Source: a virus
Taxonomy: Duplodnaviria > Caudoviricetes
Direction: 5' to 3' (one strand)
IMG/VR virus record: IMGVR_UViG_3300033513_000017
Span: 1 to 44,165 of that record
Length of the DNA: 44,165 bases
Shown: positions 7,859 through 37,924 of the stretch, piece after piece
Layout of the letters: every line of letters starts with the position of its first letter
Numbering within the stretch: the stretch's first letter is position 1
Program-made: the position numbers and the translations under genes
Notes under the pieces: generated by a model
Told to the model about the DNA's origin: nothing
Databases searched by the model: none
What the model saw: only the letters and a program-made list of their open reading frames with translations

Positions 7859-8113
7859 ATGGGATACGTATTCTTAACTGAACAAGAAACTTCTGCTGTT
7901 GAAGAAGCCTTAACTTATGCAAGGGAAGAATTAAAAGCCGCTGAGGAACAGACTGATTTTGTCTTAACTTCCGGTGCCAATGAGTTAATTACTCAAGCAT
8001 TATTGATTATTCGTAAGGCAGCTAAACACGCACAAAAAGAACTCGATGATGAATTATCGAGGGCATATGCAGAAGAGGTTAGTGACGAATCTGAGTTTGA
8101 AGAAGTAGAATAA
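7859..8113 (+). CDS. Hypothetical acidic protein
   Basis: Tightly packed ORF with a Glu-rich tail. Confidence 0.7.
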   Translation: MGYVFLTEQETSAVEEALTYAREELKAAEEQTDFVLTSGANELITQALLIIRKAAKHAQKELDDELSRAYAEEVSDESEFEEVE

Positions 8114-8118
8114 GATAA

Positions 8119-8519
8119 GTGAAGATATGTAGAACTTGTTTAAAACGTAAACATGATTCTAGTTTTTCTAGAGCTAAAGGAAATACAAGTGGTATAAGTA
8201 ACCGTTGTAAAGCTTGTGATATACTGTATCAAAAAACATATAGACAAAATAATAAAAATAAAGTATATACAAAACATAAAAATAAAAGAACAAATAGAAA
8301 ACTAGAAGCAATAGCAATCCTTGGAGGAAGGTGCTCAATGTGTCATAAACAATTTCTGCACTATTGTTATGACTTTCATCATATTGACCCTTCCAAAAAG
8401 GAAGTCTCCATATCTTATGTAGTAAATTTAGATAGAAAAACGGTTTTTTAGCGGAAATACAAAAATGTATGTTATTGTGTGCCAATTGCCATAGAAAAAT
8501 ACATTATGAGGAAAAATAA
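8119..8519 (+). pseudogene. HNH homing endonuclease, frameshifted at the T6 run (8444-8449)
   Basis: Frame 0 reads CRTC...CKAC, CSMC, YDFHHIDP and stops at 8451. The -1 frame continues LAEIQKCMLLCANCHRKIH to TAA 8517-8519, overlapping the RNR ATG. Confidence 0.8.
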
Positions 8520-11719: not shown

Positions 11720-11866
11720 TTACTTCTTTTTAAATGATAAATACAATTGCCTTGCTAACCAAACTATAGATAAAATAGTTGCTACTGGTGTTAAGAGTTT
11801 CATTAGAACAGCAGCAATTATCCCATAAGAAGTTATATCCAAAAGCCAATCAAATACTTCACTCAT
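11720..11866 (-). CDS. Small class II holin-like protein, 48 aa (not in the ORF track)
   Basis: MSEVFDWLLDITSYGIIAAVLMKLLTPVATILSIVWLARQLYLSFKKK: hydrophobic segments and a basic tail; ATGA overlap with the upstream gene. Confidence 0.65.
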   Translation of the reverse strand: MSEVFDWLLDITSYGIIAAVLMKLLTPVATILSIVWLARQLYLSFKKK

Positions 11867-14800
11867 TTCGTAATTAATCCTTTGTCTAATTCGGACTTCT
11901 TACTATTGTTGCTTTTCTTGCTGTCGTGGGGTTTCTTTATTTCTCCATTTAACCATTTAGCAGTTTCATCAATTTGAGGACTTAAGTTTCTGGTACTTTG
12001 TATTACAGGATTAACGATACCTCTTTCTGTATTAACTACAGCCTTTCCTAAAGGTGAGAAGTCCCAAGCTGTTACTTTACCATGACGATTTAAATCTTTA
12101 ACAACATTGGAACCAGTATTTCTTGCTCCCTGAACTATGTTAAATAGGTCATTACCAGCAGGACCAATTACAGAACCCTTTGGGTCAAAGGATAAAGCAG
12201 CATCAACCAAGAAACCTAAAGATGATGTATTAGCAATATTACGCATTGCACGTGTACCTATTGCTTCAAAATCCTTATGCTTAACTGCATCTAATAAACT
12301 TAGTTGCTTGTCGTTACGATTGGTAATCCAATCCTTTAACTCAGTAACCCCTTCACCAGCTACTTGAGTAGCAGCTACCCAATATAACAGAGGTTTAAAG
12401 TTTCCATGTCTTGCGGGTTTGATTATATTGTCAATTAAGAATCTACTTTGATAAGTAGCGAACCTTTTATATTGTGAGATTAATTTGAAGTAAGGATTAT
12501 TGAACCATTGAGGGGTTTTAAAGTTGGCTGATGTAAAGTTAATCTCAGCATCAATCTTTTGAGCACCCATAAGCATTTGCCTTTCAGGAATTGCATCAGG
12601 GTGTAAAGAAGTATCAATACCGAAGTAGTTAAGTTTATCATCAATCTGCTTTAGAGTCTTTTGGCCTCCCTTACTAATATTTCCTTTTCCAAGCAGTGCA
12701 GCTTTCTTTTCAAGCAAATCTTCCAAGTAAGCTTTACCAACATTAGTAGCAACAATATGGTTTGCTTCTTCAACAGGTAAGAAGGCATTTACGTTTAACA
12801 ACTTGTTTGGGTCATTAAGAATCTCAAGTGGGCCAGAGATATGTTTACCCATAATTGTGTTATGGGCATCTGCAATTTGTCGGGAATACTGAACACCAGA
12901 GGTTTCCATTGCAGCACCAGCACGTTTAGCAAAGTCCCTACCACCCTCTTTCATTAATCCATGAATACCCTGTAAGTATTGTTTAATAGGAGTAAAAGGA
13001 TTATGTCCAACTTGATTCTTTGCTAACCAAGGTAATCCATTGACTAAGGTTTGTGAAGAGTTAGGTATAGCTGAAAGAATCATTTTATGAGTTTCAAAAG
13101 CGGCAGCAGCATCATTAAGTCTTGCCGACTTACTTTCAGTTCTATACTTAATCTGTCTTTGAATAGTTTCAGAATTAGCGACATCCCCAACAGCAGTATA
13201 ATAAGCATCCCTAGTGATATTACCTGCAATACCTGTTTTATCTCCATTCATTTTAGCATTGTAGTCAATTTCATCTACTAAAGCTTTGAACTTGGAATCA
13301 TCTGCCCCAAAGATTTTAGAGAATTCAACCTGACGAAGAATATCATCATGGAATTCACTAAGAACTAATTTTGGATTCTGAATAGTTACAGGACCAAGTT
13401 CAGCCCTAATATCGGAAGGTGGGAAAGCATCAGATAAATGCTTTGACCTATTCATCTTTCTAGTAGCACCACGAATCTTTAAGATATCGTTTGTTACTTC
13501 TACAACATTATCCCCCGCCTGTACTCTTTTCATTGCATCAACTACAAATGAGGGTTGGTCCTCACCAATAAGAGATTTAACTACCTGCTCTAATTTAGTT
13601 GAGTTATTCTTGTACTTCCCGAGTAAATTTCCTACTACCTGTCTACCACCGTTTGTGTTCAAACGTAGTTCATCAAACATCACCGGCATTTGGCCAGAGT
13701 CAATCCTTTGAAATGCACTACTCATGTCACTTCTACTAATCATGCCTACATCATAGGCTTGTTTATAAACACCCTTCAAACCAGTTCTACGTTCCATTAT
13801 TGCTTGTTGAACTTTAGTATCAAGAGTATTCAAAGGTACTTGATTAGTAATACCCTTATTGAATTGGTCCATAAGGGCGGGGTCTTTTTCGATAGGCTTA
13901 AAAGACTTCGCAATATCAAACCTACTAGTACCAGAAGAAACACGATAGGAGGTGTGTGCTAAATTCAAACCCTCAGCAACAGCATTACCAGCATCCCCAT
14001 ATCGAGAGATAACAGTATCCATTGGGGTATAAGTACGTCTTAGAAAACCAGTAGCATTAAAGTCTCCGTTATATTCGGGAATTTCTGTGCCCGGTATATT
14101 ATCTCCCCACTTACCAACTACCTTATAATTTTGTCCACGACTCCAAGGCATACCGCCTGAATTAATTGTGTCATAAACTAAACCTTCTGGACTATCCCAT
14201 CTTGCACCACTTACATGAATAGCGTGCATCATATCCTCAGAAGTAATAGTTCCTGAGTCAATGTGGTCCTTAGTAATCTGTGTAAAATCCCCAAGTTGTG
14301 TTTCATCACGAATAGTAGTATTGAGTGCTACCTTTGCACTATCCACATTTGCAATAGTTGGATTTTCTGCTTTAGCTGTATAGGAAGGAGTTTCAGATAA
14401 AGTAGTGTGATGTCTTGCAGCATCAGAAAAGGTAACCTGACCAAACTGAATTTGTTTACCTTCAAGTCCAGTAACCATCTTTGCATACTTGGCACCCGTA
14501 CCGGGTTTAACATAAGCAAGAGTTATGTGTGGATTGTAGTCAGGAAATTTTTCGTGATTAGGTAATTGCTTTAGTGTATTATGTACATTGGATAAATCAT
14601 CACCTTGTACACCAAGAACAACTATATCAGCATTTTTGATAGAGAATACCTTAATCCCTTGTACTGTTCCGGTAAGGGGTTTATTAGGGATAATTTGCTT
14701 TACTACTTTGGGGTTAGCAGTTTCTAAACCAGATTGTAAAGTTACATGTGGCTCAGTTTCTAATCCTTTAAGTGGGCCTATACCATGAACTACATCATTA

Positions 14801-15606
14801 GGGTCAAACATTTGTCCAACCTTAGTGATAGTCTCAGGTGAAATAGGCTCAGCCATAATAGTTGCATCACGCTTACCAGTTTTAGGATTAATACCTTTAC
14901 CTAATTTTCTAGCAGCAGAGGCAGCACCTGCAGCATTAGTAAGACCTTCACCAACAACAGAGAAACCAGCACCAAGTAAAGCATCAACACCAGTTTGTTT
15001 CGGGTCTATTTTACCTGTTTCATCAAGTTGCCTTACAGCACTTTGAGTACCAGTTAAAGCACCCCATCTAGTAGCATTACTTGCTAATCGTGTTAAAGGT
15101 TGCGCTGCTTTAGATGCGGGCATAATTACAGTAGTGGGGTCAGCCATACTACCAAGGATATTACCAACAGTTCTTTCAGCTTTCGGGATTTGCTCAGGGT
15201 TTGTTACGCCCGTTATTTTCTTTATTGTACCTTGATTGCTTTGCTCTAATTCCTGTGCCCGTTGTTCCGAGGTCATGTCCTTTATCTTGTTGTAATCCTT
15301 TTCAGACAAGAAAAGTTTTAAAGCAGCCGCAGGAGCACGATTACGAATAAACTTACCGAGAGTTGCAGTAGGGGAAGATTTAGTACCTTCCAATAAAGAA
15401 TAAGCAGTTCCTTTAATGTGGTCAAGTAAAGAAGGATTCTTAGCTTCTTCTGCAAACTGATAATCTACAGAGGAATCTTGTTTTTCTTCAACTACTGGTT
15501 TAGCAGACTTTAAATCAAAACCACCTACAGGTTTTGCATTTTTTAAATCAAACCCGCCGGGGGAATTACCCCCGACAGGCTTGGCAGAGTTAATATCAAA
15601 AGCCAT
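11863..15606 (-). CDS. Large internal virion (DNA ejection) protein with an embedded 2H phosphoesterase
   Basis: 1247 aa; last large gene of the ejection cluster; Gly/Ala-rich segments; PHVTL (H287) and PHITL (H360) motifs. Confidence 0.78.
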   Translation of the reverse strand: MAFDINSAKPVGGNSPGGFDLKNAKPVGGFDLKSAKPVVEEKQDSSVDYQFAEEAKNPSLLDHIKGTAYSLLEGTKSSPTATLGKFIRNRAPAAALKLFLSEKDYNKIKDMTSEQRAQELEQSNQGTIKKITGVTNPEQIPKAERTVGNILGSMADPTTVIMPASKAAQPLTRLASNATRWGALTGTQSAVRQLDETGKIDPKQTGVDALLGAGFSVVGEGLTNAAGAASAARKLGKGINPKTGKRDATIMAEPISPETITKVGQMFDPNDVVHGIGPLKGLETEPHVTLQSGLETANPKVVKQIIPNKPLTGTVQGIKVFSIKNADIVVLGVQGDDLSNVHNTLKQLPNHEKFPDYNPHITLAYVKPGTGAKYAKMVTGLEGKQIQFGQVTFSDAARHHTTLSETPSYTAKAENPTIANVDSAKVALNTTIRDETQLGDFTQITKDHIDSGTITSEDMMHAIHVSGARWDSPEGLVYDTINSGGMPWSRGQNYKVVGKWGDNIPGTEIPEYNGDFNATGFLRRTYTPMDTVISRYGDAGNAVAEGLNLAHTSYRVSSGTSRFDIAKSFKPIEKDPALMDQFNKGITNQVPLNTLDTKVQQAIMERRTGLKGVYKQAYDVGMISRSDMSSAFQRIDSGQMPVMFDELRLNTNGGRQVVGNLLGKYKNNSTKLEQVVKSLIGEDQPSFVVDAMKRVQAGDNVVEVTNDILKIRGATRKMNRSKHLSDAFPPSDIRAELGPVTIQNPKLVLSEFHDDILRQVEFSKIFGADDSKFKALVDEIDYNAKMNGDKTGIAGNITRDAYYTAVGDVANSETIQRQIKYRTESKSARLNDAAAAFETHKMILSAIPNSSQTLVNGLPWLAKNQVGHNPFTPIKQYLQGIHGLMKEGGRDFAKRAGAAMETSGVQYSRQIADAHNTIMGKHISGPLEILNDPNKLLNVNAFLPVEEANHIVATNVGKAYLEDLLEKKAALLGKGNISKGGQKTLKQIDDKLNYFGIDTSLHPDAIPERQMLMGAQKIDAEINFTSANFKTPQWFNNPYFKLISQYKRFATYQSRFLIDNIIKPARHGNFKPLLYWVAATQVAGEGVTELKDWITNRNDKQLSLLDAVKHKDFEAIGTRAMRNIANTSSLGFLVDAALSFDPKGSVIGPAGNDLFNIVQGARNTGSNVVKDLNRHGKVTAWDFSPLGKAVVNTERGIVNPVIQSTRNLSPQIDETAKWLNGEIKKPHDSKKSNNSKKSELDKGLITK

Positions 15607-18461: not shown

Positions 18462-19013
18462 TTACGTATAGTAAAACACTACATAGAAACCATGAATATT
18501 TACTGTACCACCATTAGGTTGATAGCCACGGAATTGCACTGAGTTAGCACTCTTATTGGTGCATATCATTTGTGCTCCATAACTATTCTCGGGTTGTACA
18601 ATTGCTACATAATTTGTGTGACCAATGTTATGTGTTATAGTTAATGTATTGGGGTCGGACCAAGAAAGATTTGCTTGTGTGATAGAGGTATCAATACCAC
18701 CAGATTGTAAATTGGTTTGCCAAGAACCAGAAATTTTCATGGCTTTGGTGTAACCCAACTTGGCTCTTTCTACCGCAGTAAATAAACCATTAGTTGTACT
18801 AGTAGTATGATTGTCGGCATTTAAGATAGCTGATATAGCTTGGCCAGAGTCTTTAACTAAACTAGTAGAATCCCATTGGACAAGGTTATTAACTGTAGGA
18901 GTAGCACCAGTCTTTTCAACCTTTGTTTGGTTGAGATAAGTGAAATTATCATCAAGTTCACTATGAGTAAGTGCTTGTCCTTTATCTTCACGTAAGGTAA
19001 GAACAGCGGTCAT
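18462..19013 (-). CDS. Short tail fibre paralog 3 (183 aa)
   Basis: LTLREDKGQALTHSELDDNF anchor; C-terminal TITHNIG domain. Confidence 0.7.
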   Translation of the reverse strand: MTAVLTLREDKGQALTHSELDDNFTYLNQTKVEKTGATPTVNNLVQWDSTSLVKDSGQAISAILNADNHTTSTTNGLFTAVERAKLGYTKAMKISGSWQTNLQSGGIDTSITQANLSWSDPNTLTITHNIGHTNYVAIVQPENSYGAQMICTNKSANSVQFRGYQPNGGTVNIHGFYVVFYYT

Positions 19014-19549
19014 AGGAAGTAAATCGCAAACATAATTTCCGATTCCTCCGCATTACCTGACCCATTAATTACCCGAAGAGTAATACTATTAGTTGCTTTA
19101 TTTGTTGGGAGTACTGTTAAGAAATATGTAGCTCCCTTAACGGGGGAAGCCATAACAAAGTAGTACAGAGTATTCAGATTATGTGTAATTGTAACTGTCC
19201 CTGTACCATTTTTATTAACTGATAAACTATCTGGATTATAAGACCAATTCAGAGTGCTGGTAGAAACATGACCCACATATGTTTTATATGTCTTGGATAA
19301 CAAATCTTTAAGAACAAGTGGATACACATGTCTTGAAGCAGTTGATACATGATGGTCTACATTCTTGGCATAGGCTACTGTATCTGTGGTACTAGTAAGA
19401 GAATTAGCACCTTGCCAAACAGCAAGATTATTGGCCTGCACACCAGTACCGATACCGACTTTATCAGTATCCAAAGCTGTAAAGTTATCATCCATTTCCG
19501 AGATAGTTAATCGACCCGGTTTAGCACTAGGTAAAAGTAATGTGGACAT
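19010..19549 (-). CDS. Short tail fibre paralog 2 (179 aa)
   Basis: Starts at 19549 (MSTLLLPSAKPGRLTISEMDDNF); TITHNLN domain. Confidence 0.7.
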   Translation of the reverse strand: MSTLLLPSAKPGRLTISEMDDNFTALDTDKVGIGTGVQANNLAVWQGANSLTSTTDTVAYAKNVDHHVSTASRHVYPLVLKDLLSKTYKTYVGHVSTSTLNWSYNPDSLSVNKNGTGTVTITHNLNTLYYFVMASPVKGATYFLTVLPTNKATNSITLRVINGSGNAEESEIMFAIYFL

Positions 19550-19550
19550 T

Positions 19551-20087
19551 TTATAAGGCCGAATTAAATAACAAGAAACAAGTAAAAGGTAAATCTGTAG
19601 GAGTCTGTGACAAGTTATAAGTATAAAAATCTGTGTAGATATTGTTACCATAACTTTGTTCTGCTACTCCACCAGTATCAGAAGTACACCATGCCACATC
19701 CATATGATACCAACCAAGGTTATGTGTAATGCGATAATAACCAGTACCTAATTTTTCTACAGTAAGTCCTTGTGGATTATATGCTACTGTACCATCCGCA
19801 TTAACTTGTACTATGTAAGTACACTTTAAAGTTTGTAACTTAGCATACTCAGCAGCAGTTAATAACTTATTAGTTGTACCTTCGGTTTGGTTATCCATAT
19901 TCAACAAATCACTATAGGCATATGTTGAAGCTTTAATTTTAGACCCGGTATCCCATAGAGCCAACTTACCGGCTGTTGCAGTACCTGACCGCTCAATCTT
20001 ATCAGTGTTTAAATTATCGAAATTGGCTTCACCTTCAACGCGGGTAACAGGTGAACCTTTTGTTTTACGTAGAACTAAAGTGCTCAT
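19551..20087 (-). CDS. Short tail fibre paralog 1 (178 aa)
   Basis: MSTLVLRKTKGSPVTRVEGEANF; GTGYYRITHNLG. Confidence 0.7.
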   Translation of the reverse strand: MSTLVLRKTKGSPVTRVEGEANFDNLNTDKIERSGTATAGKLALWDTGSKIKASTYAYSDLLNMDNQTEGTTNKLLTAAEYAKLQTLKCTYIVQVNADGTVAYNPQGLTVEKLGTGYYRITHNLGWYHMDVAWCTSDTGGVAEQSYGNNIYTDFYTYNLSQTPTDLPFTCFLLFNSAL

Positions 20088-22912: not shown

Positions 22913-25861
22913 TCAGAGGTCGTTTGTAAAAGTTCCTTGTGGAATTTCAGAGGAATTAGGAACATCAGTAATTTCTTCTAGCCTCTTTCGTTCAGGTTCA
23001 GGCTGAACCAATGCAGGAGAAATCTTATCTTGTTTTGCTTTAAGGAACTCTTGCTCGTGGCGAGGTTCCCAACATTGACTACAAACTAATTTACCATCCC
23101 AAGTACGTTTCATTTCAGACATACGGTAATTCAAACCACATATAATACAGTGTGCCCAATTATCGCCCCACACTAAACCAGCGCCGCTCCAACCACCGGG
23201 GTTACCTGATTTAGTTTCATCAGGAGTAATTGCAGTATAAATGGTAACACCTTCATCAGTAGTCGGATAAGCATGCGAGGCTCTCTTACCACCTTTGATA
23301 ATTGTTGTAGTTGTTACATATACATTCAGTACATAATTATGAACACCTAACGTACCTTTTTGCATAGTACCATTTGTACCGATAGTAATAGTATTGCTAC
23401 CATTAATACCCCAAGCATCACCATGACCTAATGTACTATATTCATCAACACCTATATCCCAACCAACCATTAATCCGCGTGTATCAAATTCCCAATCTTC
23501 TGTAACTCGTAAATATTGGTCACCTGATAAACTAGTGCCTTTATCACAAGCTACAGTATCAAGCATAGACAAATGAAAATTATTATTATCGGAGTCAATG
23601 AATATAGGAGTTACATTAGTATAACTGTTAGTACCCGGTGCATCATTATGATTTGAAATATTATAATCAGAATCATTTGTAAATTGACTGGTACTACTTT
23701 CAGCACTACATAAAGCAAAGATGGTGTTTTTCATACGAACACCGCCTGTACCAGAATTTACAGGTTTGTTACCACACTTAGCAATAGTACAGTTATAAAC
23801 TGTTACTTCTTTATTGCCGTAAGATGAAGCATTTAATCCATATTGTTTGGGACCACAAATAAGACTATTCTTAATGCGTAAACTATTTTCTTTAGTTAAT
23901 ACACCATCACTAACTAAAATACCATCTGAACCAGATGTATCAGCTAATACACCAGTAAATAACACACATTTATTAATTAATACATCTTCTACAGTAACAC
24001 GTATAACTGGTTTACCCCAACTACCATTATATCTAATACATAAATTTTCAATAGTAGTGTATGGCGCACTGACCACAAGAGGTATAGCATTATCTGTAAT
24101 TACATCCAAATTATAAGCATCAATAGTATTGAACTTACCGCGAACATTATTGATACACTTTACTGTAACATTATAAATATTGTCTGTAGTCCATCCACTA
24201 ATTGTTACGTTAGTAGTATCAGAAGTACCGCCATTAGACCGAACATAACAATAATGCTTTTTAGTTATAGCTGTGAGGTCTTTAGCCTCAGCAGTATTCC
24301 AAGCATCTAAAGATGTATAAGCATCTGTCCAACTTGTACCATTACCTAATCCTGTTGCTTCGGGGTCTACATAAGTCTCTTCATAAGACAATGTAGAGAC
24401 TTCCATAATTGCATGAGTAGTAATAGTAGTAGTTACAGATGCATTTAAATTATAATCATAAGTGTATCGTTCATAAGTTAATCCAGCAGCATCCGGTACA
24501 AAACTAGTTGTGACTGAACCATGCAAAGCTCTAATCACATACATAGAAGAAGCATTAGGAGTTATAGATAATGTAAGACCACCTTGGAAATTTTCATTAA
24601 CACATCTGAATGTTGCAGCAGGTGTTACATATAAAACTAAACTACCATCAAAATTATAATGGTTTGCCGAACTTGTGTACTCCATTACTGTTGCACTTGG
24701 AGTTACATATAAAGTATTTGCACCATTTTTTATGTAATTACGTGCAAATTTTAATACTGTAGCTCCTGGAGTAATTGAAAGAGTTACAGAACCATTAAAA
24801 TTATAATTGGCAAAGTGCATTGTAGCACTAGGTGTAAAAGAAGTTGTGATTGATGCATTCAGTGAAGGAGTTTGTTGCGTAGTTTTATATTCATCACAAC
24901 CAATATCCCAACTTGTACCACCGGGGCGGGTTTGCCCATCAATATCAGTAGTAAAAGTGGCACTTAAATCATAACCATAATCACGAGCACCGGCATCATT
25001 CGATGCTAAATGATAATCATCATTGGGTCGGTCTACAAAAGTTATAGTCTGACTTGCACGACTATTAGCACCAGTTACACCCGTACCTGTTGAGGCATTA
25101 TAATTTGAACCAGTTGTATAAGTAGAGGTATCAACTTCATTTGTGTTGTATGCAAACAGATTATTAGTACAATTAAAAGGTTTAGCAGTAGATGATGTGC
25201 TTAAAGACCTACCATTATCTACAAAAGTATTATTGTATAAATTCCATGCACCAACAGCAGTATCAGTTCTAGGGTCGTCAATTGCTTTATCATATACATT
25301 ATAGAATAAACAATTAATAACAGTCGCACCACCAGTAGTTGTTATACCGCCAGTTCTTTGGTCATATATTCCTTTATACACATTCACAAAAATACAATTT
25401 TTAATTGTCAGTTGTGGATTAGCCGCAGAAGGACCAACACACCAGTAAGGGCCAACAGAACCATCACTTTGCCCAACAAACTGTAAACCGTCAATTGTTA
25501 CATACTGTTTAGAACCTGTACTAATCCCTTGTGTACTGGCTGTTGCTGGCATACTAAGTCGATACTTAGATGTACTATATGAACCAGCATGTCTGTCTGC
25601 TTGGTCAACTTGAATAGTAAGAGTATGGGTATCATCAGTAGTCCAAGAGGAAAGACTGACAGCAGTTACACCAGAAGTGGTACTATCAGCCGTTCCCGCC
25701 GAACTTTTACAATGTACTACATGACTATTACCAGCAGTTACAAGATTAACTGCTTCTGCCGTGTTCCAAGCAGATAAAGAACGATATGCCTGAGACCAAG
25801 TAGTTCCATCAATAGGAGTACCTGTAGCGTCCGGGTCAACATAGCGGTCAATAACTGCCAT
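22913..25861 (-). CDS. Large virion appendage: duplicated beta-helix domains, shaft repeats and a C-terminal Zn-binding module
   Basis: YVDP-ATG...AWNTAEA...WDIG-DEY occurs twice; repeated NGSxTLxxTP motif; C-terminal CIICG...VCSQCWEPRH. Confidence 0.75.
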   Translation of the reverse strand: MAVIDRYVDPDATGTPIDGTTWSQAYRSLSAWNTAEAVNLVTAGNSHVVHCKSSAGTADSTTSGVTAVSLSSWTTDDTHTLTIQVDQADRHAGSYSTSKYRLSMPATASTQGISTGSKQYVTIDGLQFVGQSDGSVGPYWCVGPSAANPQLTIKNCIFVNVYKGIYDQRTGGITTTGGATVINCLFYNVYDKAIDDPRTDTAVGAWNLYNNTFVDNGRSLSTSSTAKPFNCTNNLFAYNTNEVDTSTYTTGSNYNASTGTGVTGANSRASQTITFVDRPNDDYHLASNDAGARDYGYDLSATFTTDIDGQTRPGGTSWDIGCDEYKTTQQTPSLNASITTSFTPSATMHFANYNFNGSVTLSITPGATVLKFARNYIKNGANTLYVTPSATVMEYTSSANHYNFDGSLVLYVTPAATFRCVNENFQGGLTLSITPNASSMYVIRALHGSVTTSFVPDAAGLTYERYTYDYNLNASVTTTITTHAIMEVSTLSYEETYVDPEATGLGNGTSWTDAYTSLDAWNTAEAKDLTAITKKHYCYVRSNGGTSDTTNVTISGWTTDNIYNVTVKCINNVRGKFNTIDAYNLDVITDNAIPLVVSAPYTTIENLCIRYNGSWGKPVIRVTVEDVLINKCVLFTGVLADTSGSDGILVSDGVLTKENSLRIKNSLICGPKQYGLNASSYGNKEVTVYNCTIAKCGNKPVNSGTGGVRMKNTIFALCSAESSTSQFTNDSDYNISNHNDAPGTNSYTNVTPIFIDSDNNNFHLSMLDTVACDKGTSLSGDQYLRVTEDWEFDTRGLMVGWDIGVDEYSTLGHGDAWGINGSNTITIGTNGTMQKGTLGVHNYVLNVYVTTTTIIKGGKRASHAYPTTDEGVTIYTAITPDETKSGNPGGWSGAGLVWGDNWAHCIICGLNYRMSEMKRTWDGKLVCSQCWEPRHEQEFLKAKQDKISPALVQPEPERKRLEEITDVPNSSEIPQGTFTNDL

Positions 25862-25879
25862 CTTGTTTTAACTCCTTAA

Positions 25880-28504
25880 TTAATAGCCATGTACCCCTGC
25901 GTCTGCAAGCCAATCAGCATTAGCAAAACACCCCATATCCATAGCAGCACCAGTAACAAGACCACCAACCCTACCTGCGCCCTTACAAGGTGAAGCAGTA
26001 GTTAAGTGATAATCACCACCAGTAAGATTTACAAATAATGGATTAGTAGACATACCATGTATGTCATATCCTAAAGCTTGCCATTGAGCAAAGGTAAGAT
26101 TAGATGGGGAACCATAATACCCAATACTCCAAGTTGTACTACCATTAGTGTTAAAGAAACAATTATAATCGTGAATATCAAACTCACCAGTATGGGGCGG
26201 ATTTTCGTAGTAAGTGCGCATCACAGGTCCACCAGCAGCTTGTTGGATAAAGATATTGTTATAACACGATACATGATTAGTATAAGTTGGGGGCGCATCT
26301 GTAGCATAACCATTAGGTTGCCATGTGGCGCTTGAACTTGCGTTATTGATTACAGTGTTGTTCCACAAATTATTATATTCATGGTACTTAGCAATCATAT
26401 ATTGGATACTAGCACTACCAGAACTTACAATTAAATTCTCATAATACTTATTATAACTTGACATAGGAGAAGTACCAGTACCACCCAAAATCATATGAAT
26501 TGGGTGAGTCAGATTATAAAAGTAATTACGATAAACCTCATTACGCGCATCACCTTCATTAGCGTTACTTTTTGACATAATACCAGTTGCACTATTATGA
26601 CATTTGTTATATCTTAAGATATTGTCAGTGCCGTGGAAGAAAGTAAAGCATGTGGCATTCTCAGTACCAGAGTTTGCAGTATCGTAAAGTTCACAGTATT
26701 CAACAATATTGTTATAAGAATCAGTAAATTCAACAGCAGGAGTATTACTAGTATCACCACTTCTCATACCATGAACATAACAATTACGAACTACATTATG
26801 TGAAGCACCATTAAAGAATGCTACTCCACGTGTACCAGCATTTTGAACATCAAACCCTTCCCACCAAATATAACTACGTCCATTACCACCAATAATACCA
26901 CCTTGGGAAGCACCACCACTGGATTTAAGGATAACCTTATCCCCGGGTTTAGCTTGGAAACGAATGTAATTATTTGCAGTACCACTATTAGTAGGATTAA
27001 ACACTACATCTGACCAAGCAGCATCAGCGCCAAGATATGTACCAGCTTTGACGCCCACGGTCTCGCCGGGAGTCGCAGTTTGCATTGCTTTAACAAAAGT
27101 ACGCCACGGTAAAGCTTCTGTACCGGGATTTAAGTCTGATGCATTAGGATGATTTTGGTCTACCCAATAAGCATCAGGAGGTAAAGTAGTTGGTGTACCA
27201 GTACCAGAATAAGGAGGTTCTCCACCTCCGCCACCTCCACCACCACCAGAGGTGTCTTGAATAACTAATTCATTAGTAGTTGCATCACTACGTTGGATAT
27301 TACTCGCATCAACTTCTGTTGCTACTACATCATAAGTACCAGCAGCCATAATCTTGTTAGCCGGAATCTGTAGTGCCCAATTACCAGCACCATCAGTAGT
27401 CAATGCACCCGGAGGTAATAGAGAAGATAACAGTTGGTCAGTACCAATACCAAAGATATAACTATTGAGAGAGTCAGAATTGATATCCCAACCAGAGACA
27501 CCACCAAGAGCTTGATACTGGCTACTAGCTGTAACAGTACGTCCCGTATAGTCCGTACCATTAACTAAATACTTAACAGCATAAGTAATAGCATTATTAC
27601 TACTACCCGAACCAGACAAACCTTGAGCAAGTGTAATATCATCTAACCAAAGTGTCTGCGCTACAGGTGAACCATCACCAATATAAGGACCAAGACCAAT
27701 TTGATTAAACTTCATAATAGGATGTGCACCAGTACGGAACACCATTGCATTATTATGCATTATTTCCGTACCATCAACCCACATTATTGCTACACCATCA
27801 GCTAACCCCTTACCACCAGAAATTGAATTCATCTTAAGATAAACTTCAACTTTATGGAAAGAAGTAGGATTAGTTATAGCATTAGGAGGATACCACCATC
27901 GCTCATTACGCCAAGCACTATAATTATAACAACCTACATAATTACCAGCATCACCTTTAGTACCATTACAACCAGCAACAGCACGATTCTCAGTAGTACC
28001 AGTAAGGTCAACATTGATATTATTAGTATCAATATTCAACCTATCTTGAATACCAAACCAAAAATACAAATTACTGTGCGGCTCCACATAGCAAGTCATG
28101 TGTGAATCGGCATAACCTAAATAATCTGTATCAACATCAGTACAAATATAAAATAAATGTGGGTGGTAAGTGTGATTAGAACCAACCCAATTACTTGATG
28201 TTTTAATATTAAAACTAAAATATAAAGATTCAGTCGCCGTAAATTTATGTCGGGCATCACCCCAACCAGCAGGAGTAGTACCAGTAGTGACCCAATCTAA
28301 CTTTAGTGTACCGCCGTCAATAACAAATTGAGTATTAGAACAATCATACCAACCACGGCTAGTTAAATTATTATCAGTAAAAGATTCTTGAAGTAGAATA
28401 GCACCCTTATAAGAATCTCCACCTGTACCACCACTACTAGGAGCCTGAGAAGTAGGGACACCAAGCGTGACTTGTCTTTGTCCGAGAACAGCAAAATCGG
28501 TCAT
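25880..28504 (-). CDS. Virion appendage B: GH18 fragments, ConA/lyase-like domain, half Ig, Gly linker, right-handed beta-helix
   Basis: Likely start at 28504 (MTDFAV); poly-Gly linker; NPGTEALPWRT...TPGETV-VKAGTY beta-helix cap. Confidence 0.75.
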   Translation of the reverse strand: MTDFAVLGQRQVTLGVPTSQAPSSGGTGGDSYKGAILLQESFTDNNLTSRGWYDCSNTQFVIDGGTLKLDWVTTGTTPAGWGDARHKFTATESLYFSFNIKTSSNWVGSNHTYHPHLFYICTDVDTDYLGYADSHMTCYVEPHSNLYFWFGIQDRLNIDTNNINVDLTGTTENRAVAGCNGTKGDAGNYVGCYNYSAWRNERWWYPPNAITNPTSFHKVEVYLKMNSISGGKGLADGVAIMWVDGTEIMHNNAMVFRTGAHPIMKFNQIGLGPYIGDGSPVAQTLWLDDITLAQGLSGSGSSNNAITYAVKYLVNGTDYTGRTVTASSQYQALGGVSGWDINSDSLNSYIFGIGTDQLLSSLLPPGALTTDGAGNWALQIPANKIMAAGTYDVVATEVDASNIQRSDATTNELVIQDTSGGGGGGGGGEPPYSGTGTPTTLPPDAYWVDQNHPNASDLNPGTEALPWRTFVKAMQTATPGETVGVKAGTYLGADAAWSDVVFNPTNSGTANNYIRFQAKPGDKVILKSSGGASQGGIIGGNGRSYIWWEGFDVQNAGTRGVAFFNGASHNVVRNCYVHGMRSGDTSNTPAVEFTDSYNNIVEYCELYDTANSGTENATCFTFFHGTDNILRYNKCHNSATGIMSKSNANEGDARNEVYRNYFYNLTHPIHMILGGTGTSPMSSYNKYYENLIVSSGSASIQYMIAKYHEYNNLWNNTVINNASSSATWQPNGYATDAPPTYTNHVSCYNNIFIQQAAGGPVMRTYYENPPHTGEFDIHDYNCFFNTNGSTTWSIGYYGSPSNLTFAQWQALGYDIHGMSTNPLFVNLTGGDYHLTTASPCKGAGRVGGLVTGAAMDMGCFANADWLADAGVHGY

Positions 28505-28508
28505 TTTA

Positions 28509-30878
28509 TTAAGCCCCCGGTCCGTTCTGCCCAACATCAGGCAACCAATACATCTTTGCAAAACACCCTAAATCATCACCATATCTACCTGCATTTTTAG
28601 CAGGAGAGCCGGTTTGTAGTTGATAGTCCTTACCGGCATAATTAACAAACAGAGGGGCAGTAGCTTGTGCAGAGTGAACATCCCACACTTGACCAGCATA
28701 ACCTTTCCACTGAGTCCAATTATAATCAGTAGATGCAAACCTTACAGTAAATGCACCAGAACTACGATAATATAAATTATAATCCCAAGTAGTAATAATC
28801 TCAGGAGGGAATGGATTTACAAAGGTAAGCATTTCATATCCGGTGTTATATGCACAAATGTTGTCATAGAACTTAATACCATAAGCACCATTATATGCAT
28901 CACCAGATTGACCATACTTCATTAAGTTGGTAGTATTAACAAAGGTATTATTGTATACGGGGAAGTTATTCAGAGGACTATTTACGTCATAAACAAACAT
29001 CCACATACCTTGTGTAACACCATCAACTAAGTTCTCGTACCATTCATTATCATGTGAAGTAGTGGTAGAAACAAACGCAACAGCATCACCGATTAAATCG
29101 TGGATATGGTTACGCCATACTTTGCAACCAGTTACGGGCTGACCAGTGCCTTGAGCCTTAAGGTCAATACCAGAACCATTATTGTAAATATCATTGTACT
29201 TGATAATACAATCTTGTGAACCATATACCTTAATACCACAGGCATTATGATTATTCACACTATTACTAGAACCATGAACCTTATTGTACTCGACAATAGC
29301 ATGTTTAGTATTCTCTAGACGAATACCATCAGCATTATCAGTAGTAGCTACAGTAGCACCACCAACATCACAATTGCGAATACGATTGTATTGTCCACCA
29401 TAAATGATTGCATTCTTTTCTTGTGCTTGAGTAGTAGTAATACCTTCCCACCACACATAATCATTATTGTAAGTGCCAAATACAGGACCATTACCACTAG
29501 CAGCTAGTGTAACAGTTTCACCATTATAATTCTGAATGTGAATGCGCTTATCACGAGAAATACCAGTACCAGACGCACCCGGACAAAAGGCCGGATAGTA
29601 GCCATCACCAGTATTAGTAGTGGTATAAGTACCACCCCTTAAATTTACATGGTCACCTGGTTTCATTTGAGTACGGCCAGTTGCCCAATCCCAAGGACTA
29701 CCCACAGCACCAGTACCACTAGAGGAACCAGTAGTAGAAATAAACACTTCTCGTAAATAACTACCCTTGGAAGCTTGTGCATCAACAGCAAAACCAGATA
29801 ACAGCATCTCAGTCATAGCCACATAGAAATTAGCTTTTTGAGCATCAGTGCTATTATCGTCAATATGATAAAGTACACCATCCTTTCCATATACATCCAA
29901 AGTACCAACATACTTGGGTTGTACATAATCTACAATATCTTTAATACCATAGATAATAGGAATCAAACTACCTTGTCTACGGTCAGTTGCCGTAGAGTAT
30001 TCATCATAACCAGCCTGTAAGAACAAGGTATCAGGGGATACAGAAATAATGAAACTAGGTTTGGATGCTTGCATATTACTATGAATAGTGGTAATTGCAT
30101 TAATAGCATTCAAAATAGCAGTAGTAGTCGGATTGATGTAATCATTGTCCCCAACATCACGTTCAAGTACATCCCCATACATGAAATCAAAATTAATACC
30201 GTCAAACCCAAAGGTTTGTGCCAAAGTAGTTAAAGAACTAACAAAGGCATTCTTCTGAGTAGTAGTACCTAAATTAACTGCATAGTTAGTGCCAACATTC
30301 AGAATAACCTTCTGACCCTTGGCTTGTAGTGCTTGAATTTCAGAAATGAAAACGGCGTTACTCGGATACATAAGAACATTTGGAGTAAACGTCATAGTCA
30401 TATTAGTAGGTGAGGTCGGGATTGCCTCAGTAACAGCTACAACATCATACTGAGTCGGAACTACATTTAAACGAATTTGCTGAGTAGAAACAGTTGGGTT
30501 ATTTATCCAATAACCAAACACAATAGAACTACCACCAACAGAACCTACGGAATAAGTGTTATTATCAACAGTAACAGACAAACCTTTTTGCGAATACTGA
30601 GTATCATAAGTACCAGTAATCAATGGGGTAGTGTCAGTAGTTGTTAATCCAATAACTGTGGGAACATTGGGTGTAGCATACTGCTTGTAAGAAATTGCTC
30701 TTGCTCTAGGAGTAATAGCAGTAACAGTACGGCCAGCAAATGCGCCCTTAGTGCGTCCATACTTTAGGACACTTGCTTGTACACCAAAACCAATACTTAC
30801 TATACCGTTAAATAAATACTCAGCATATGAAGGAGGGGTTACGTCCGGTGTATACCCCCCATCAATGATAAACGGCAT
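28509..30878 (-). CDS. Virion appendage A: half Ig, GH18 N-terminal part (inactive), right-handed beta-helix
   Basis: PTVIGLTTTDTTPLITGT; VFGYW; LQAKGQKVILNVG; GFDGINFDFM; GSPW...PGDHVNLRGGTY. Confidence 0.78.
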   Translation of the reverse strand: MPFIIDGGYTPDVTPPSYAEYLFNGIVSIGFGVQASVLKYGRTKGAFAGRTVTAITPRARAISYKQYATPNVPTVIGLTTTDTTPLITGTYDTQYSQKGLSVTVDNNTYSVGSVGGSSIVFGYWINNPTVSTQQIRLNVVPTQYDVVAVTEAIPTSPTNMTMTFTPNVLMYPSNAVFISEIQALQAKGQKVILNVGTNYAVNLGTTTQKNAFVSSLTTLAQTFGFDGINFDFMYGDVLERDVGDNDYINPTTTAILNAINAITTIHSNMQASKPSFIISVSPDTLFLQAGYDEYSTATDRRQGSLIPIIYGIKDIVDYVQPKYVGTLDVYGKDGVLYHIDDNSTDAQKANFYVAMTEMLLSGFAVDAQASKGSYLREVFISTTGSSSGTGAVGSPWDWATGRTQMKPGDHVNLRGGTYTTTNTGDGYYPAFCPGASGTGISRDKRIHIQNYNGETVTLAASGNGPVFGTYNNDYVWWEGITTTQAQEKNAIIYGGQYNRIRNCDVGGATVATTDNADGIRLENTKHAIVEYNKVHGSSNSVNNHNACGIKVYGSQDCIIKYNDIYNNGSGIDLKAQGTGQPVTGCKVWRNHIHDLIGDAVAFVSTTTSHDNEWYENLVDGVTQGMWMFVYDVNSPLNNFPVYNNTFVNTTNLMKYGQSGDAYNGAYGIKFYDNICAYNTGYEMLTFVNPFPPEIITTWDYNLYYRSSGAFTVRFASTDYNWTQWKGYAGQVWDVHSAQATAPLFVNYAGKDYQLQTGSPAKNAGRYGDDLGCFAKMYWLPDVGQNGPGA

Positions 30879-30883
30879 GGGGC

Positions 30884-31285
30884 TTACGCCACCACGTTAG
30901 ATAGATTAATAGTGTAAGTGTCGTTTTCTGCTAATGTATAGGGACCAGCAGCATCAACCTCAATATGCAGCAACTTCGGGGTAGTACCAGTAGTTGCAGT
31001 AAAATAACCACGGACAGAACCAGTATAACCACCACTACCAGCAGTAAAAGTCTGCGCGGCATAAGTAGAAGTATCGTTAGTCACAGTCCAAGAGGCATCA
31101 GTCAAAGTCTTGCGCGCATATGAACCACCAGTCGGTTCAGTAATTGCAGAAAGAGTAGTAGTCTCATTTACGCTTGAATTAGTAAACAAACCTAGCTGTA
31201 AATTCGTACCACGGTCAGTTGATACATTCTTATAAATAAAATTACCAAGGAAATTCTCGCCCTCATCGGGAGTAAAACCAGCCAT
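30884..31285 (-). CDS. Fibre/appendage base protein
   Basis: LGLFTN...ITEPTGGSYARKTL motif typical of small structural proteins that precede long fibres. Confidence 0.55.
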   Translation of the reverse strand: MAGFTPDEGENFLGNFIYKNVSTDRGTNLQLGLFTNSSVNETTTLSAITEPTGGSYARKTLTDASWTVTNDTSTYAAQTFTAGSGGYTGSVRGYFTATTGTTPKLLHIEVDAAGPYTLAENDTYTINLSNVVA

Positions 31286-31306
31286 ATTCTATTGTCTCCA
31301 ATCTCT

Positions 31307-31690
31307 TTAAGCTACGTTCTTTTTCTTGAGATAGAGCATAATCACACCAGCATCACCAGTAGCAATACCAGAAGTAGTAATCAGAATATCACCTGTTTTA
31401 CCCGTTCCAGCATTATTGATTAGTCCACCCATTGCCGTAAAATCTAAGTGGTCGTCATGGTCAGCTGAAAGAGAAATGATATCTACATCAGTAGAAGCAT
31501 CCCATAAAAGCTTCGCACTAAAACCGTTTAATACAGAATCGACACGCATAATCTTGATATCGGAAGTAGCAAAAGCAGATGCATCTACTGCAATAGAAGC
31601 AGATAAATCAGCATCACCAGCGATATTTAATTTAACAACAAGATTGCGGTCACCATTTACCAAAGTTTGAGAAGTAAGTGTACCCGCCAT
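31307..31690 (-). CDS. Conserved virion structural protein
   Basis: TSQTLVNGDRN...GLINNAGTGKTGDILITT; lies in the head module. Confidence 0.6.
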   Translation of the reverse strand: MAGTLTSQTLVNGDRNLVVKLNIAGDADLSASIAVDASAFATSDIKIMRVDSVLNGFSAKLLWDASTDVDIISLSADHDDHLDFTAMGGLINNAGTGKTGDILITTSGIATGDAGVIMLYLKKKNVA

Positions 31691-31731: not shown

Positions 31732-32127
31732 TTAAGAAGTAGCCACAAGACCAGCAGTTTCAAGTAAGGCCAAAATAGCGTTTACTTTAGTACGAACAGC
31801 AGTTACATCAGCAATAATTGCAGTAGTCTGCGTTTGGAACTCTTTAAAATTAGCATTAATCTCATTCGCTTGAGCAGAACTCCAAGTCGAATTATAAGTA
31901 ATATCATTAATAGCACCATCATTGGTGCCAGTCATAGTCCCAGTTAAAGCGGCAGCAGTAATTGCAGCAACATCAGCAGCATGTGCTTGCTGTGCAAGTT
32001 TTAAGATAGTCTTTACTACACCAGCCGATGAAGTAATACGAAATTCAGGAACACCCGCATTATCGTAAAGTTGAATCAAATCCCCATCAAGAGTTTTCCA
32101 ACCCTCAATAACATAAGTAGCAGCCAT
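31732..32127 (-). CDS. Head fibre/decoration protein
   Basis: C-terminal KVNAILALLETAGLVA motif; directly after the major capsid gene; AGGAG RBS. Confidence 0.65.
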   Translation of the reverse strand: MAATYVIEGWKTLDGDLIQLYDNAGVPEFRITSSAGVVKTILKLAQQAHAADVAAITAAALTGTMTGTNDGAINDITYNSTWSSAQANEINANFKEFQTQTTAIIADVTAVRTKVNAILALLETAGLVATS

Positions 32128-35599: not shown

Positions 35600-35919
35600 T
35601 CTTCTTCTTTATCTCTCTCTTTTAGTCCAGCTATTACTTGTAACACACTGTTATAAGCGTCGAGCTTGCCGATATACTCAGCATTCTTTTGTGCTGTGCC
35701 TCCAACAGATTCTAGTGTATCTACACCAGCGAGATGTGATGCAAGTTCCGTATATACCTGTGAATCAATAAAATAAATTAAGGCTTGTGAAATTCTATCA
35801 TTTAACCAAGACTTAATATCATGTGCAGAAATATCATTCAGTAATCCATGAAAAGCATCAGTATAATTATTTGCTTCCGCTAGAATTGGGTTTAGAATTT
35901 GATTTAGATTGCGCTCCAA
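35596..35919 (-). CDS. Hypothetical protein between portal and GroES
   Basis: Syntenic small helical ORF; start uncertain. Confidence 0.55.
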   Translation of the reverse strand: MERNLNQILNPILAEANNYTDAFHGLLNDISAHDIKSWLNDRISQALIYFIDSQVYTELASHLAGVDTLESVGGTAQKNAEYIGKLDAYNSVLQVIAGLKERDKEEE

Positions 35920-37924
35920 TCTTTGCTACCTCTTTCTCATGTGAATGTTGCTGACCTGCTAAACTGGCCTCATGGCCCATTTCTTCACGCTTAAGTTCAT
36001 GCTCTTTATCTTGCATGTGGATATCAGCCACAGTTTTGTGTGCATCCACAGCCATCTTAAGACGGTCAGTTTTAAGCTCTTCTGGAATAGCAGCAGCCTT
36101 AGTTGTATTAAGAACAGCAGAAGCATGGTCTTTTTCAGCACCAGATTGAGTACGAACACCTTCCATCTGCATACTCGCCATATCCAATTGACGTTGATGT
36201 TCAAACTTAGCAACATCAAGTTGTAATTGTTTCTCTTCAATAGAAGGTTCAGGCGGCTTCGGAGAAGTCATTAACTTTTGAACTTCCGAATGACCTTCTG
36301 CTTCAAGTACGCGTTTCAGTGCTTCTTCTTTATTAGGAAGAATCTGCCACTTTTGAATCAATAATTGTGAACGCATCATCTTTTGCGCATCAGTAACCAC
36401 TCTTGGGTCACCAACAGGACGAATATCACAATCTTCTGGGTTAAAATCTTCTTTCAATACTTCAAGAGGAACTTGGGGTTGGTCTAAAACTACTCCATAC
36501 TCCTTAGCATCCATATATCTGTAGAATAAATTGAAGATTTTCTCGTATTCATCGCCTAAAGACTTGAAAATACGCTTGTAGATACCAACAAATACCTTCA
36601 AACCTTGCTCTAGAACGGCAGCAGTAGTTGCATACGGCTGATTTTGTCCCGGATTTTCACCCATCATGGCATCATTTATAGATGCTAGACGCTCACCAGA
36701 CTGAATTAACAGTTCAAGTAACTGAAAAAGTGTTGGAGAAGGTTGATTTGCAGGAATTGGTATAATTTCTTTACGTAAATCATCACCAAGGTTATTTACT
36801 GTCTGCCAAAGTCCGGGTTTAACCTTAATTTTACCACCACGAAGGTTCAAACCCTTACCCAAGAAGCCAGTAGACATAATTGATAATGTACCAGAATCAA
36901 TCAATTGGTTGATGTTTGTGTTAATTGCAAGATTAAGAGGACCAACCAAAGAACCCAAACCCATACCATAGAGAGGACTATTAGGGTCAGGAATAAAGAT
37001 ATACCTTGTGAATTGCTCTTCGGGTGTGATACAAACAATTTTCTTACCATTTTCTGACGTTTCAACATCTTTCCACTCAAATCGCGGAACAATCCGTAAA
37101 ACAGTATTAGTATCACGGTCAACAGTGAATATCCAAGGTTCCCTGTAACCATCCTTATCTAAATCCCAAGACCAATGTATTTCATAAATCTCTCGTAAAG
37201 CATCTTCCTCTTGGTTTAATCCACCAGTAGGATGCATACCAAGGATTTTATCTTGTACAGGGTCTTGATGTTTTTGTGCAGCTGGGGCAAGGTCTACATC
37301 TAAGAAAACACCCTTGCGCTTATACTCTTCAATTTGATTCTCAGTAAGCCACATTCTGTGAGTCTTACGTGCAGTTTCAAAATTGCGAGCATTGTAATTA
37401 AGAATTACATCTTTTGCGGTAATAAGGTCGGAAGCAACCCTATTGCGTACTGTTGAATAGTACGTCTTTTTGTACATCATACCAGAGATAGCTAGGATGA
37501 ATAGACCTCTATCCATACCATCTAGCCAATCAGGCATTTTTTCAATTAAGTAGAAGTTTGCGTAAGCAGCAGTACGATAAGCCCGGAATTGTTTAATACC
37601 TTCGGGGTCCTCACCATACACTCTTACATTTACAAGATTAGGTTCATTAAATAATGCACCATATGCTCTTGCATGGAAATTCAAACAAGCAGTTGTTAGA
37701 AGAGGATACTTTACGTTGGCAGCATGATCCCACGGAGTATTTTTTTGTTCAATTACTTGAGAAGTAAGTTTAATCCAAGTTGCTTGGTTCTTTAACCACT
37801 CCTCCCGACTTTGGTCATCCTCTTTAACAAGAGTAACCAACTTTTCCCCAAGATCCGTTAAAGTCTCTTCATCTAAGTTTTCTGCAATGTTTATACTTTG
37901 GATTGTATCTTCATCAATTTTCAC
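35867..37924 (-). CDS. Portal protein (P22-like, extended C-terminal barrel)
   Basis: NIAENLDEE-L, PWDHAANVKYPLL, YGMGLG, NQLIDSGTL, EQGLKVF-IYKR. Confidence 0.92.
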   Translation of the reverse strand: MKIDEDTIQSINIAENLDEETLTDLGEKLVTLVKEDDQSREEWLKNQATWIKLTSQVIEQKNTPWDHAANVKYPLLTTACLNFHARAYGALFNEPNLVNVRVYGEDPEGIKQFRAYRTAAYANFYLIEKMPDWLDGMDRGLFILAISGMMYKKTYYSTVRNRVASDLITAKDVILNYNARNFETARKTHRMWLTENQIEEYKRKGVFLDVDLAPAAQKHQDPVQDKILGMHPTGGLNQEEDALREIYEIHWSWDLDKDGYREPWIFTVDRDTNTVLRIVPRFEWKDVETSENGKKIVCITPEEQFTRYIFIPDPNSPLYGMGLGSLVGPLNLAINTNINQLIDSGTLSIMSTGFLGKGLNLRGGKIKVKPGLWQTVNNLGDDLRKEIIPIPANQPSPTLFQLLELLIQSGERLASINDAMMGENPGQNQPYATTAAVLEQGLKVFVGIYKRIFKSLGDEYEKIFNLFYRYMDAKEYGVVLDQPQVPLEVLKEDFNPEDCDIRPVGDPRVVTDAQKMMRSQLLIQKWQILPNKEEALKRVLEAEGHSEVQKLMTSPKPPEPSIEEKQLQLDVAKFEHQRQLDMASMQMEGVRTQSGAEKDHASAVLNTTKAAAIPEELKTDRLKMAVDAHKTVADIHMQDKEHELKREEMGHEASLAGQQHSHEKEVAKIGAQSKSNSKPNSSGSK

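Follow-up and report, generated by a model that had tools for sequence, protein, structure and literature searches.

Can two neighbouring phage genes each encode part of the same protein folds, so that these folds are completed only when the two products meet? The question is raised by a linear virus DNA of 44,165 bases, IMG/VR record IMGVR_UViG_3300033513_000017, which is about 90% complete and which we analysed over its whole length (hereafter, the window). On its minus strand lie two adjacent genes, A and B (Table 1). Read across both, the encoded domains are the N-terminal half of an immunoglobulin-like (Ig-like) domain, strands 1-6 of a GH18 barrel, a first beta-helix, the stop of A, the start of B, GH18 strand 7, a jelly-roll, barrel units 7-8, the C-terminal half of the Ig-like domain, a linker and a second beta-helix. 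The coordinates and motifs of A and B are as an initial annotation had given them, and its proposal of nested insertions, a gene fission and a dead active site is supported by our sequence tests. We conclude that the two halves probably pair in trans, completing an inactive barrel and the Ig-like domain, and we assign this reading a probability of roughly 0.6.

The barrel provides the principal evidence. Its first part, in A, belongs to GH18 subfamily B: residues 116 to about 366 match the Bacillus chitinase ChiA (3N11) with an E value of 2e-32. When residues 300-365 of B were searched alone against 177,635 PDB sequences, the ChiA family occupied the top six of eight rows, at ChiA residues 273-319 and E values of 0.038-0.07. 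Profiles built solely from intact chitinases (one from 7 sequences, another from 87 domains) were run on 1,144 six-frame segments of the window, among which only A and B pass. On the 87-domain profile, A occupies positions 14-252, the first 27 residues of B positions 250-277, and B302-360 positions 280-338; as a whole sequence, B has an E value of 1.3e-5 with this profile and 3e-6 with the 7-sequence profile. The two genes tile the barrel without a gap, no position being missing at either break and B's Met lying at the break, and all eight beta-alpha units are present only when A and B are combined. The stop at 28511-28509 keeps the barrel from being encoded in a single polypeptide. This break follows the sixth beta-alpha unit, a permissive site in TIM barrels. 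The barrel has no chitin-insertion domain and carries a Trp at the end of strand 8.

Taken alone, the strand-7 piece at the start of B scores weakly. It has no match in the PDB, and its domain i-E is 0.65 with the 7-sequence profile and 5.4 with the 87-domain profile. With position-specific scoring matrices (PSSMs) of two widths, it ranks first of 35,115 and second of 38,547 sequence windows. MAFFT places it unaided: at the glycine loop that follows strand 7, each of the 20 intact C-terminal parts receives a gap about 272 columns long. Because of its place and order we accept the piece as strand 7 despite its weak scores, and the proposed distribution of the barrel, with strands 1-6 in A and strand 7 and the remainder in B, is upheld with that reservation.

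The AlphaFold2 (AF2) model of A shows six barrel strands and then the beta-helix. Compared with residues 32-267 of 3N17 it gives Z 23.4 and a root-mean-square deviation (rmsd) of 2.8, with 34% identity and 235 of 326 ChiA residues aligned. Since the model covers only this part of ChiA and contains six strands, A closes no barrel alone. Residues 1-116 of the model have a predicted local distance difference test (pLDDT) score below 50, but they were modelled without alignment rows, and three beta-helix rows were partly misaligned. The AF2 model of B1-414 alone has a pLDDT of 43, with only helix 7 near 70; its alignment lacked jelly-roll rows, and it is uninformative.

The Ig-like domain gives a second, separately chosen match. 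With the B half, a search found one plasmid-borne Vibrio type I-secreted adhesin at a search E value of 0.7, in which B368-406 corresponds to residues 2001-2038 (41% over 39 amino acids, pairwise E 2e-7). The A half, which had no part in choosing this adhesin, aligns with residues 1965-1997 of the repeat that also holds the B match and, at similar positions, with 12 further repeats. In the intact adhesin the two halves stand three residues apart, and in the window the domain is opened near its middle by the insert. Pfam names neither half. The fragments of B thus align both to GH18 and to the Ig-like domain, whose halves had been proposed for A and B from the outset.

The catalytic DxDxE motif reads N229-F-D231-F-M233 in A (D229N and E233M), and on account of E233M an active chitinase was rejected as a reading. 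According to the accessible text on the subfamily B chitinase Chi23, mutation of the Asp or the Glu abolishes activity (PMC6831621). The barrel is supported as catalytically dead on these sequence grounds. Among columns at least 90% conserved in the family, 34 of 55 are kept in A, and 5 of 7 and 6 of 10 in the two B pieces. Many of the changes at invariant columns fall on what we take, in part, to be catalytic or cleft motifs (D229N, E233M, SxGG, MAPE, QxYN and strand 8's second Trp); W339, in the same strand, is retained, while several other cleft positions are altered. Where at least 90% of the family is hydrophobic, the residue is still hydrophobic at 66 of 71 columns in A and, for the two pieces of B, at 5 of 8 and 12 of 15, against a background of 0.33-0.45. 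Most core hydrophobic positions remain, indicating that the fold is kept while the enzyme is lost. The nested order, the fission, the lost catalytic Glu, the kept core and a separate start for B are evident at the level of the sequence, and from them we infer an A-B heterodimer.

The ConA-like or lyase-like domain that had been proposed as an insertion in B is a jelly-roll with 206 homologues. Among the 119 matches listed, identity is 34-47%, many carry PF14099/PF21294, most contain Ig or fibronectin domains, and none has a GH18 piece. For the beta-helix of A, the model is closest in fold to two polysaccharide lyases, with Z 26.8 to RbmB (rmsd 2.9, 302 residues aligned) and 26.4 to Pel9A (rmsd 3.5, 319 aligned), scores that are tied with those of many other structures. 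The initial annotation described two different beta-helices; both are present, but they are paralogues, 28% identical over 408 columns. Both finish in D-x-G-C-F-A...W-L-x-D-x-G, which is absent from all six other rows, and the stop of A falls within 2-3 residues of B's own C-terminal motif. In a tree of 8 rows, from which two domains of the downstream gene C were left out, the two are sisters (99/98) on branches of 1.49 and 1.27, separated by about 2.8 changes per column. A split dating from the beta-helix duplication would be old, with the halves kept ever since.

A likely anchoring route, absent from the initial annotation, would run through a gp80-like gene and the rope-like repeats that A and C share. 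The gene lies immediately upstream of A and encodes 133 aa. Viral contigs yielded 14 relatives; 10 of the 13 aligned family members match PF23140 (Gp80) at E values of at most 0.1 (best 1.1e-4), the window's own copy giving no match, and PDB searches with the protein and with the family profile returned chance matches only. As described in the accessible text, the gp80-like proteins of GP4, VP1 and A1002, each of about 140 aa, are dimers strung on a rope protein (PMC13730344); the gp80 of PMC10966104, to judge from the part available, is a different protein and was set aside. Residues 1-70 of A resemble C338-399 (33% over 64 amino acids, E 3e-6). Their score of 70 was reached by none of 1,000 shuffles, the best other segment of A scoring 60; no comparable repeat was detected in B, where the best of 81 windows scored 41. 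Genes near the gp80-like relatives in two loci (L175 and L176) encode similar short beta-strand repeats, with a weak likeness to A1-70 and C330-495. As a separate observation, the gp80-like gene (L170-L183, around 8001-8400) occurs in very different neighbourhoods, and the gene that follows it varies from phage to phage.

Gene C encodes a beta-helix-like domain, about seven rope-like repeats (330-495), a second beta-helix-like domain and a C-terminal CxxC...CxxC module, a fusion that may tether C to the virion. We also note that this module (C885-982, 22913-23210) is N-terminal in a separate gene of 74-241 amino acids in 20 of 20 matches, from 95 loci of which several are duplicates. C would tether a rope that A joins, and B would be held only through A; as B has no rope-like repeat, it has no evident path to the virion without A.

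Several observations weigh against pairing in trans. From helix 7 to helix 8, the identity of B to the family is 31% at best (median 24%), compared with a family median of 47% and a 5th percentile of 33%. The sister group of the beta-helices consists of the two longest branches in the tree and may reflect long-branch attraction, and the cassette in A could be a recent arrival from another phage. The rope assignment is a similarity between A and C without a solved rope protein as reference, and a five-unit hidden Markov model from the C repeats scored A poorly. The frame of B, +1 to that of A, is open for 21 codons upstream of its ATG, which leaves room for a fused product. Finally, the same layout was found in none of 87 GH18 domains, 119 jelly-roll homologues, 95 phage-like loci and 50,697 phage records, in partial searches of proteins up to about 1,381-1,530 aa, which makes the locus a singleton within these sets.

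All 87 of the fetched GH18 relatives are uninterrupted. Homologue searches with A70-370 found one other protein among 3,629 candidates, and with A372-789 two proteins among 7,999, missing B. No relative was detected by single-protein viral scans that started from the GH18 part, B1-420, the Ig C-terminal half and the B beta-helix, and a viral scan with the GH18 alignment found two intact chitinases. The genome scan took in 6 of 64 parts and retained 80 of 418 matches. In the literature, taken mostly from outside subscription journals, we found neither a GH18 split in nature nor a nested fibre tip made by two genes. On one viral contig (L117:5929-8457), an 842-aa protein carries two tandem intact GH18 domains.

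The alternative that survives best, which we regard as unlikely, is that A and B work apart as beta-helix carriers, their broken barrel and Ig-like domain persisting unpaired, either as linkers or as a six-strand unit that is partly folded. Both open reading frames (ORFs) are long and intact, no barrel position has been lost at either break, and core hydrophobic positions are retained in both genes, although B pieces below the family's 5th percentile of identity are compatible with such remnants and the divergence pattern could predate a recent split. Stability of A by itself is conceivable, given that (beta-alpha)6 subdomains can be stable alone, according to the available part of one study (PMC3741200). 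The slot that holds the genes is hypervariable in relatives and no second example was found, points that also suit independent carriers; as such, however, B would be left without an evident route to the virion.

The junction bears on the next alternative, to which we give slightly less credence: that one chain is made at least partly, either by a +1 ribosomal slip on five G's before the stop of A or because a recent one-base change split a single gene, the folds closing in cis. A ends in two in-frame TAA codons (28511-28509 and 28508-28506), and the ATG of B, at 28504, comes 4 nt after the first. The G run lies two codons before the stop and GGG-G permits re-pairing, but the same run stands 9 nt before the ATG, placed as a putative Shine-Dalgarno (SD) sequence for B. 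Its duplex of -8.6 kcal/mol is the fifth strongest of 21 starts scored with the E. coli anti-SD sequence, which may not be that of the host. B is predicted to have its own start and ribosome-binding site. The 21-codon open stretch favours a slip, yet such a stretch is expected by chance with a probability of about 0.36, and no pause signal was found at the junction, where the hairpin is not significant (z -1.33 and +0.35). The beta-helix of A matches Pel9A to near its C-terminus, and the Pel9A C-terminal tail presumably returns alongside the helix; nesting in frame would then be feasible. The main reason for preferring two products is that A ends where its paralogue in B ends; on our reading the stop belongs to a terminal cassette that was inserted, and did not arise by a recent indel. 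A hairpin over the SD and ATG of B was considered as a sign of translational coupling and dropped as evidence.

The second sample (X2) has the same letters at the junction, in a 151-nt contig (28494-28644) with 0 differences and 0 gaps, and this contig, of depth 2, does not show a single continuous ORF. The cross-sample comparison used assembled contigs, all from X2 and none from X1 or X3. That the stop is a homopolymer error of sequencing or assembly, or the locus a chimeric assembly, is highly improbable: although a G5 run lies at the junction and the covering contig ends 15 nt past the stop, under the 31-nt bridging criterion, 14 of 17 X2 contigs over 25000-31500 are at least 99% alike with no joint among the matches listed, the pieces complete each other in order, and the even codon adaptation index (CAI) of all A and B segments (0.51-0.73, against 0.66-0.69 in three core genes) counts against chimeric assembly.

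Pairing of A and B in trans suggests the following history. An adhesin-type Ig-like domain would have taken a GH18 insert, and the barrel would have taken the jelly-roll after strand 7. A terminal beta-helix cassette with its own stop would have entered the loop between helix 6 and strand 7, and the remainder downstream of it would have gained an ATG. In a 1:1 A-B pair the barrel would act as a scaffold, displaying two beta-helices and the jelly-roll, which would bind or cut polysaccharide of the host surface or biofilm. The two sugar-binding-type domains of B would hang on a virion fibre that A joins through its N-terminal repeats, and gp80-like dimers on the rope repeats of A and C would build this fibre. 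In its fullest form the proposal is a two-gene double clasp, in which a 6+2 TIM barrel and a halved Ig-like domain close only when A meets B. The resulting obligate heterodimer would be B's sole virion anchor, would present at the end of a rope-and-gp80 chain fibre three domains that bind or cut polysaccharide, and would be a natural, long-maintained split TIM barrel serving purely as an assembly device. We advance this fuller form tentatively, at a little short of even odds.

Comparison with known systems places the locus between several precedents. The Bacillus cereus chitinase ChiNCTU2/ChiA (3N11, GH18 subfamily B) resembles the locus in its barrel sequence, at the 34% identity given above, and likewise has no chitin-insertion domain and a Trp at the end of strand 8; here, by contrast, the barrel is spread over two genes, carries two foreign domains in its loops, has NxDxM for DxDxE and is nested in an Ig-like domain. 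In the RTX adhesins AhLap, FrhA and MpIBP, as far as the accessible text describes them, nested split Ig domains project ligand-binding domains within one chain (PMC12077191). Our locus shares with them an Ig domain interrupted by an insert, a second level of nesting (in theirs, a vWFA domain budding an insert) and a match to a type I-secreted adhesin repeat. Those adhesins are single bacterial chains; in the phage, the outer domains extend over two genes of the structural operon, a TIM barrel forms the insert, and the Ig-like domain is opened near its middle.

In the Pseudomonas podophage A1002, gp39, its nozzle-rope protein, and gp42, its nozzle-base protein, complete a split nozzle beta-propeller in the virion, which also bears rope-and-dimer chain-like fibres, according to the part of the report available (PMC13730344). 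This precedent supports completion in trans. The likeness, which is predicted here from sequence, would lie in two phage genes for one fold and in gp80-like dimers on a rope; whereas A1002 splits its native nozzle beta-propeller, here a borrowed dead enzyme and an Ig-like domain are split in the adhesive part, and the nozzle gene is separate. Given A1002 and the nested split Ig domains of the RTX adhesins, the statement in the initial annotation that no described phage appendage is built this way was too strong. In phage Aeh1, the accessible text describes a ribonucleotide reductase gene broken by an insertion, whose two polypeptides, NrdA-a and NrdA-b, reassemble (PMC3045599). There the insert is a homing endonuclease and activity is restored, whereas here the insert is a beta-helix that stays joined to the first half, and activity has been lost. 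Fragment complementation has also been engineered in the TIM barrels PRAI, TrpA and TIM, again on the accessible text (PMC3741200); the present locus would be a natural case, with extra domains on each half. If true, it unites two separately known designs, the nested split domains of adhesins and folds completed in trans in virions.

Table 1. Coordinates of the features discussed, in window positions
Feature	Residues	Coordinates	Strand	Basis or remark
133-aa gene directly upstream of A		30884..31285	-	family resembles GP4 gp80 chain-like-fibre subunit
Gene A	789 aa	28509..30878	-	
About three 21-23-aa beta-strand-type repeats, putative rope/anchor	A1-70	30669..30878	-	likeness to C repeats
N-terminal half of bacterial adhesin-type Ig-like repeat	A72-113	30540..30665	-	matches to repeats of a single Vibrio adhesin, E 3e-5 to 1e-3
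GH18 subfamily B barrel, strands 1-6	A116-370	29769..30533	-	PDB match, intact-chitinase profiles, model
Right-handed beta-helix, polysaccharide-lyase type, ending at the stop of A	A372-789	28512..29765	-	PF13229, E 1.6e-6; model
A/B junction: GGGGG (28518-28514), two successive TAA codons in the frame of A, start ATG of B		28502..28518	-	sequence, start scoring, second-sample contig
Gene B	874 aa	25880..28504	-	
GH18 strand 7 and next loop	B1-26	28427..28504	-	profile positions 250-277, MAFFT alignment; weak alone
ConA-like/polysaccharide-lyase-like jelly-roll in strand 7-helix 7 loop	B27-296	27617..28426	-	homologues; Atlas structure matches over 27-297
GH18 helix 7, strand 8 (W339 kept), helix 8	B297-361	27422..27616	-	PDB search, profiles, alignment
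C-terminal half of Ig-like repeat	B366-414	27263..27409	-	Vibrio adhesin match
Second beta-helix after Gly-rich linker, same C-terminal motif as that of A	B440-874	25883..27187	-	paralogue of that of A
Gene C	982 aa	22913..25861	-	candidate fibre tether
Nozzle gene, separate from A and B		21941-20358		

The minus strand of the window also codes for a terminase, portal, major capsid protein, head-tail adaptor, head-closure/nozzle and ejection proteins, a gene set that identifies the virus as a podovirus. Genes A, B and C sit between the capsid gene and the adaptor gene, a slot that holds different genes from phage to phage among the matches listed (29 viral loci found through the capsid protein, where the locus covers the slot; many of these loci are duplicates or short). 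The capsid relatives, apart from the window's own record, are at most 61% identical and therefore too distant to share the A/B/C slot. The record was found in two wetland metagenome runs of the same study, with no RNA dataset among the sequencing runs that carry it, and a promoter scan gave no excess of sites (21, against 40.5 in shuffles).

Other genes of the window deserve brief mention. A 131-aa gene after the capsid gene (31732-32127) resembles head fibre proteins at its C-terminus (phrog_6994, E 4.5e-5), and a terminator-like hairpin (32180-32159) stands just before it. Residues 244-279 of the portal protein (35867-37924) form a short insert that weakly resembles a phage zinc-binding domain (PF24230, E 0.019; phrog_3351, E 0.0067). 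Three small neighbouring genes at 18462-20087 share an N-terminal motif with one tail-fibre-like gene of another locus (L007), and for one of them the matches to tail fibres are weak. The structural operon closes, behind the ejection genes, with a 1,247-aa protein (11863-15606) that contains a 2H phosphoesterase stretch at residues 285-384, which matches the anti-CBASS protein Acb1 at E 3.2e-7, above the cut-off; the protein may bring in a counter-defence enzyme at injection.

If A and B do pair in trans, the locus would show one way in which phages gain receptor-binding domains. Even with a stop of its own, an insertion would be tolerated because the broken host domain becomes the link between two products. 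It would also offer a natural split TIM barrel for folding studies. It would further serve as a warning that a partial GH18 match on a viral contig, readily taken for an auxiliary chitinase, may be a dead structural part.

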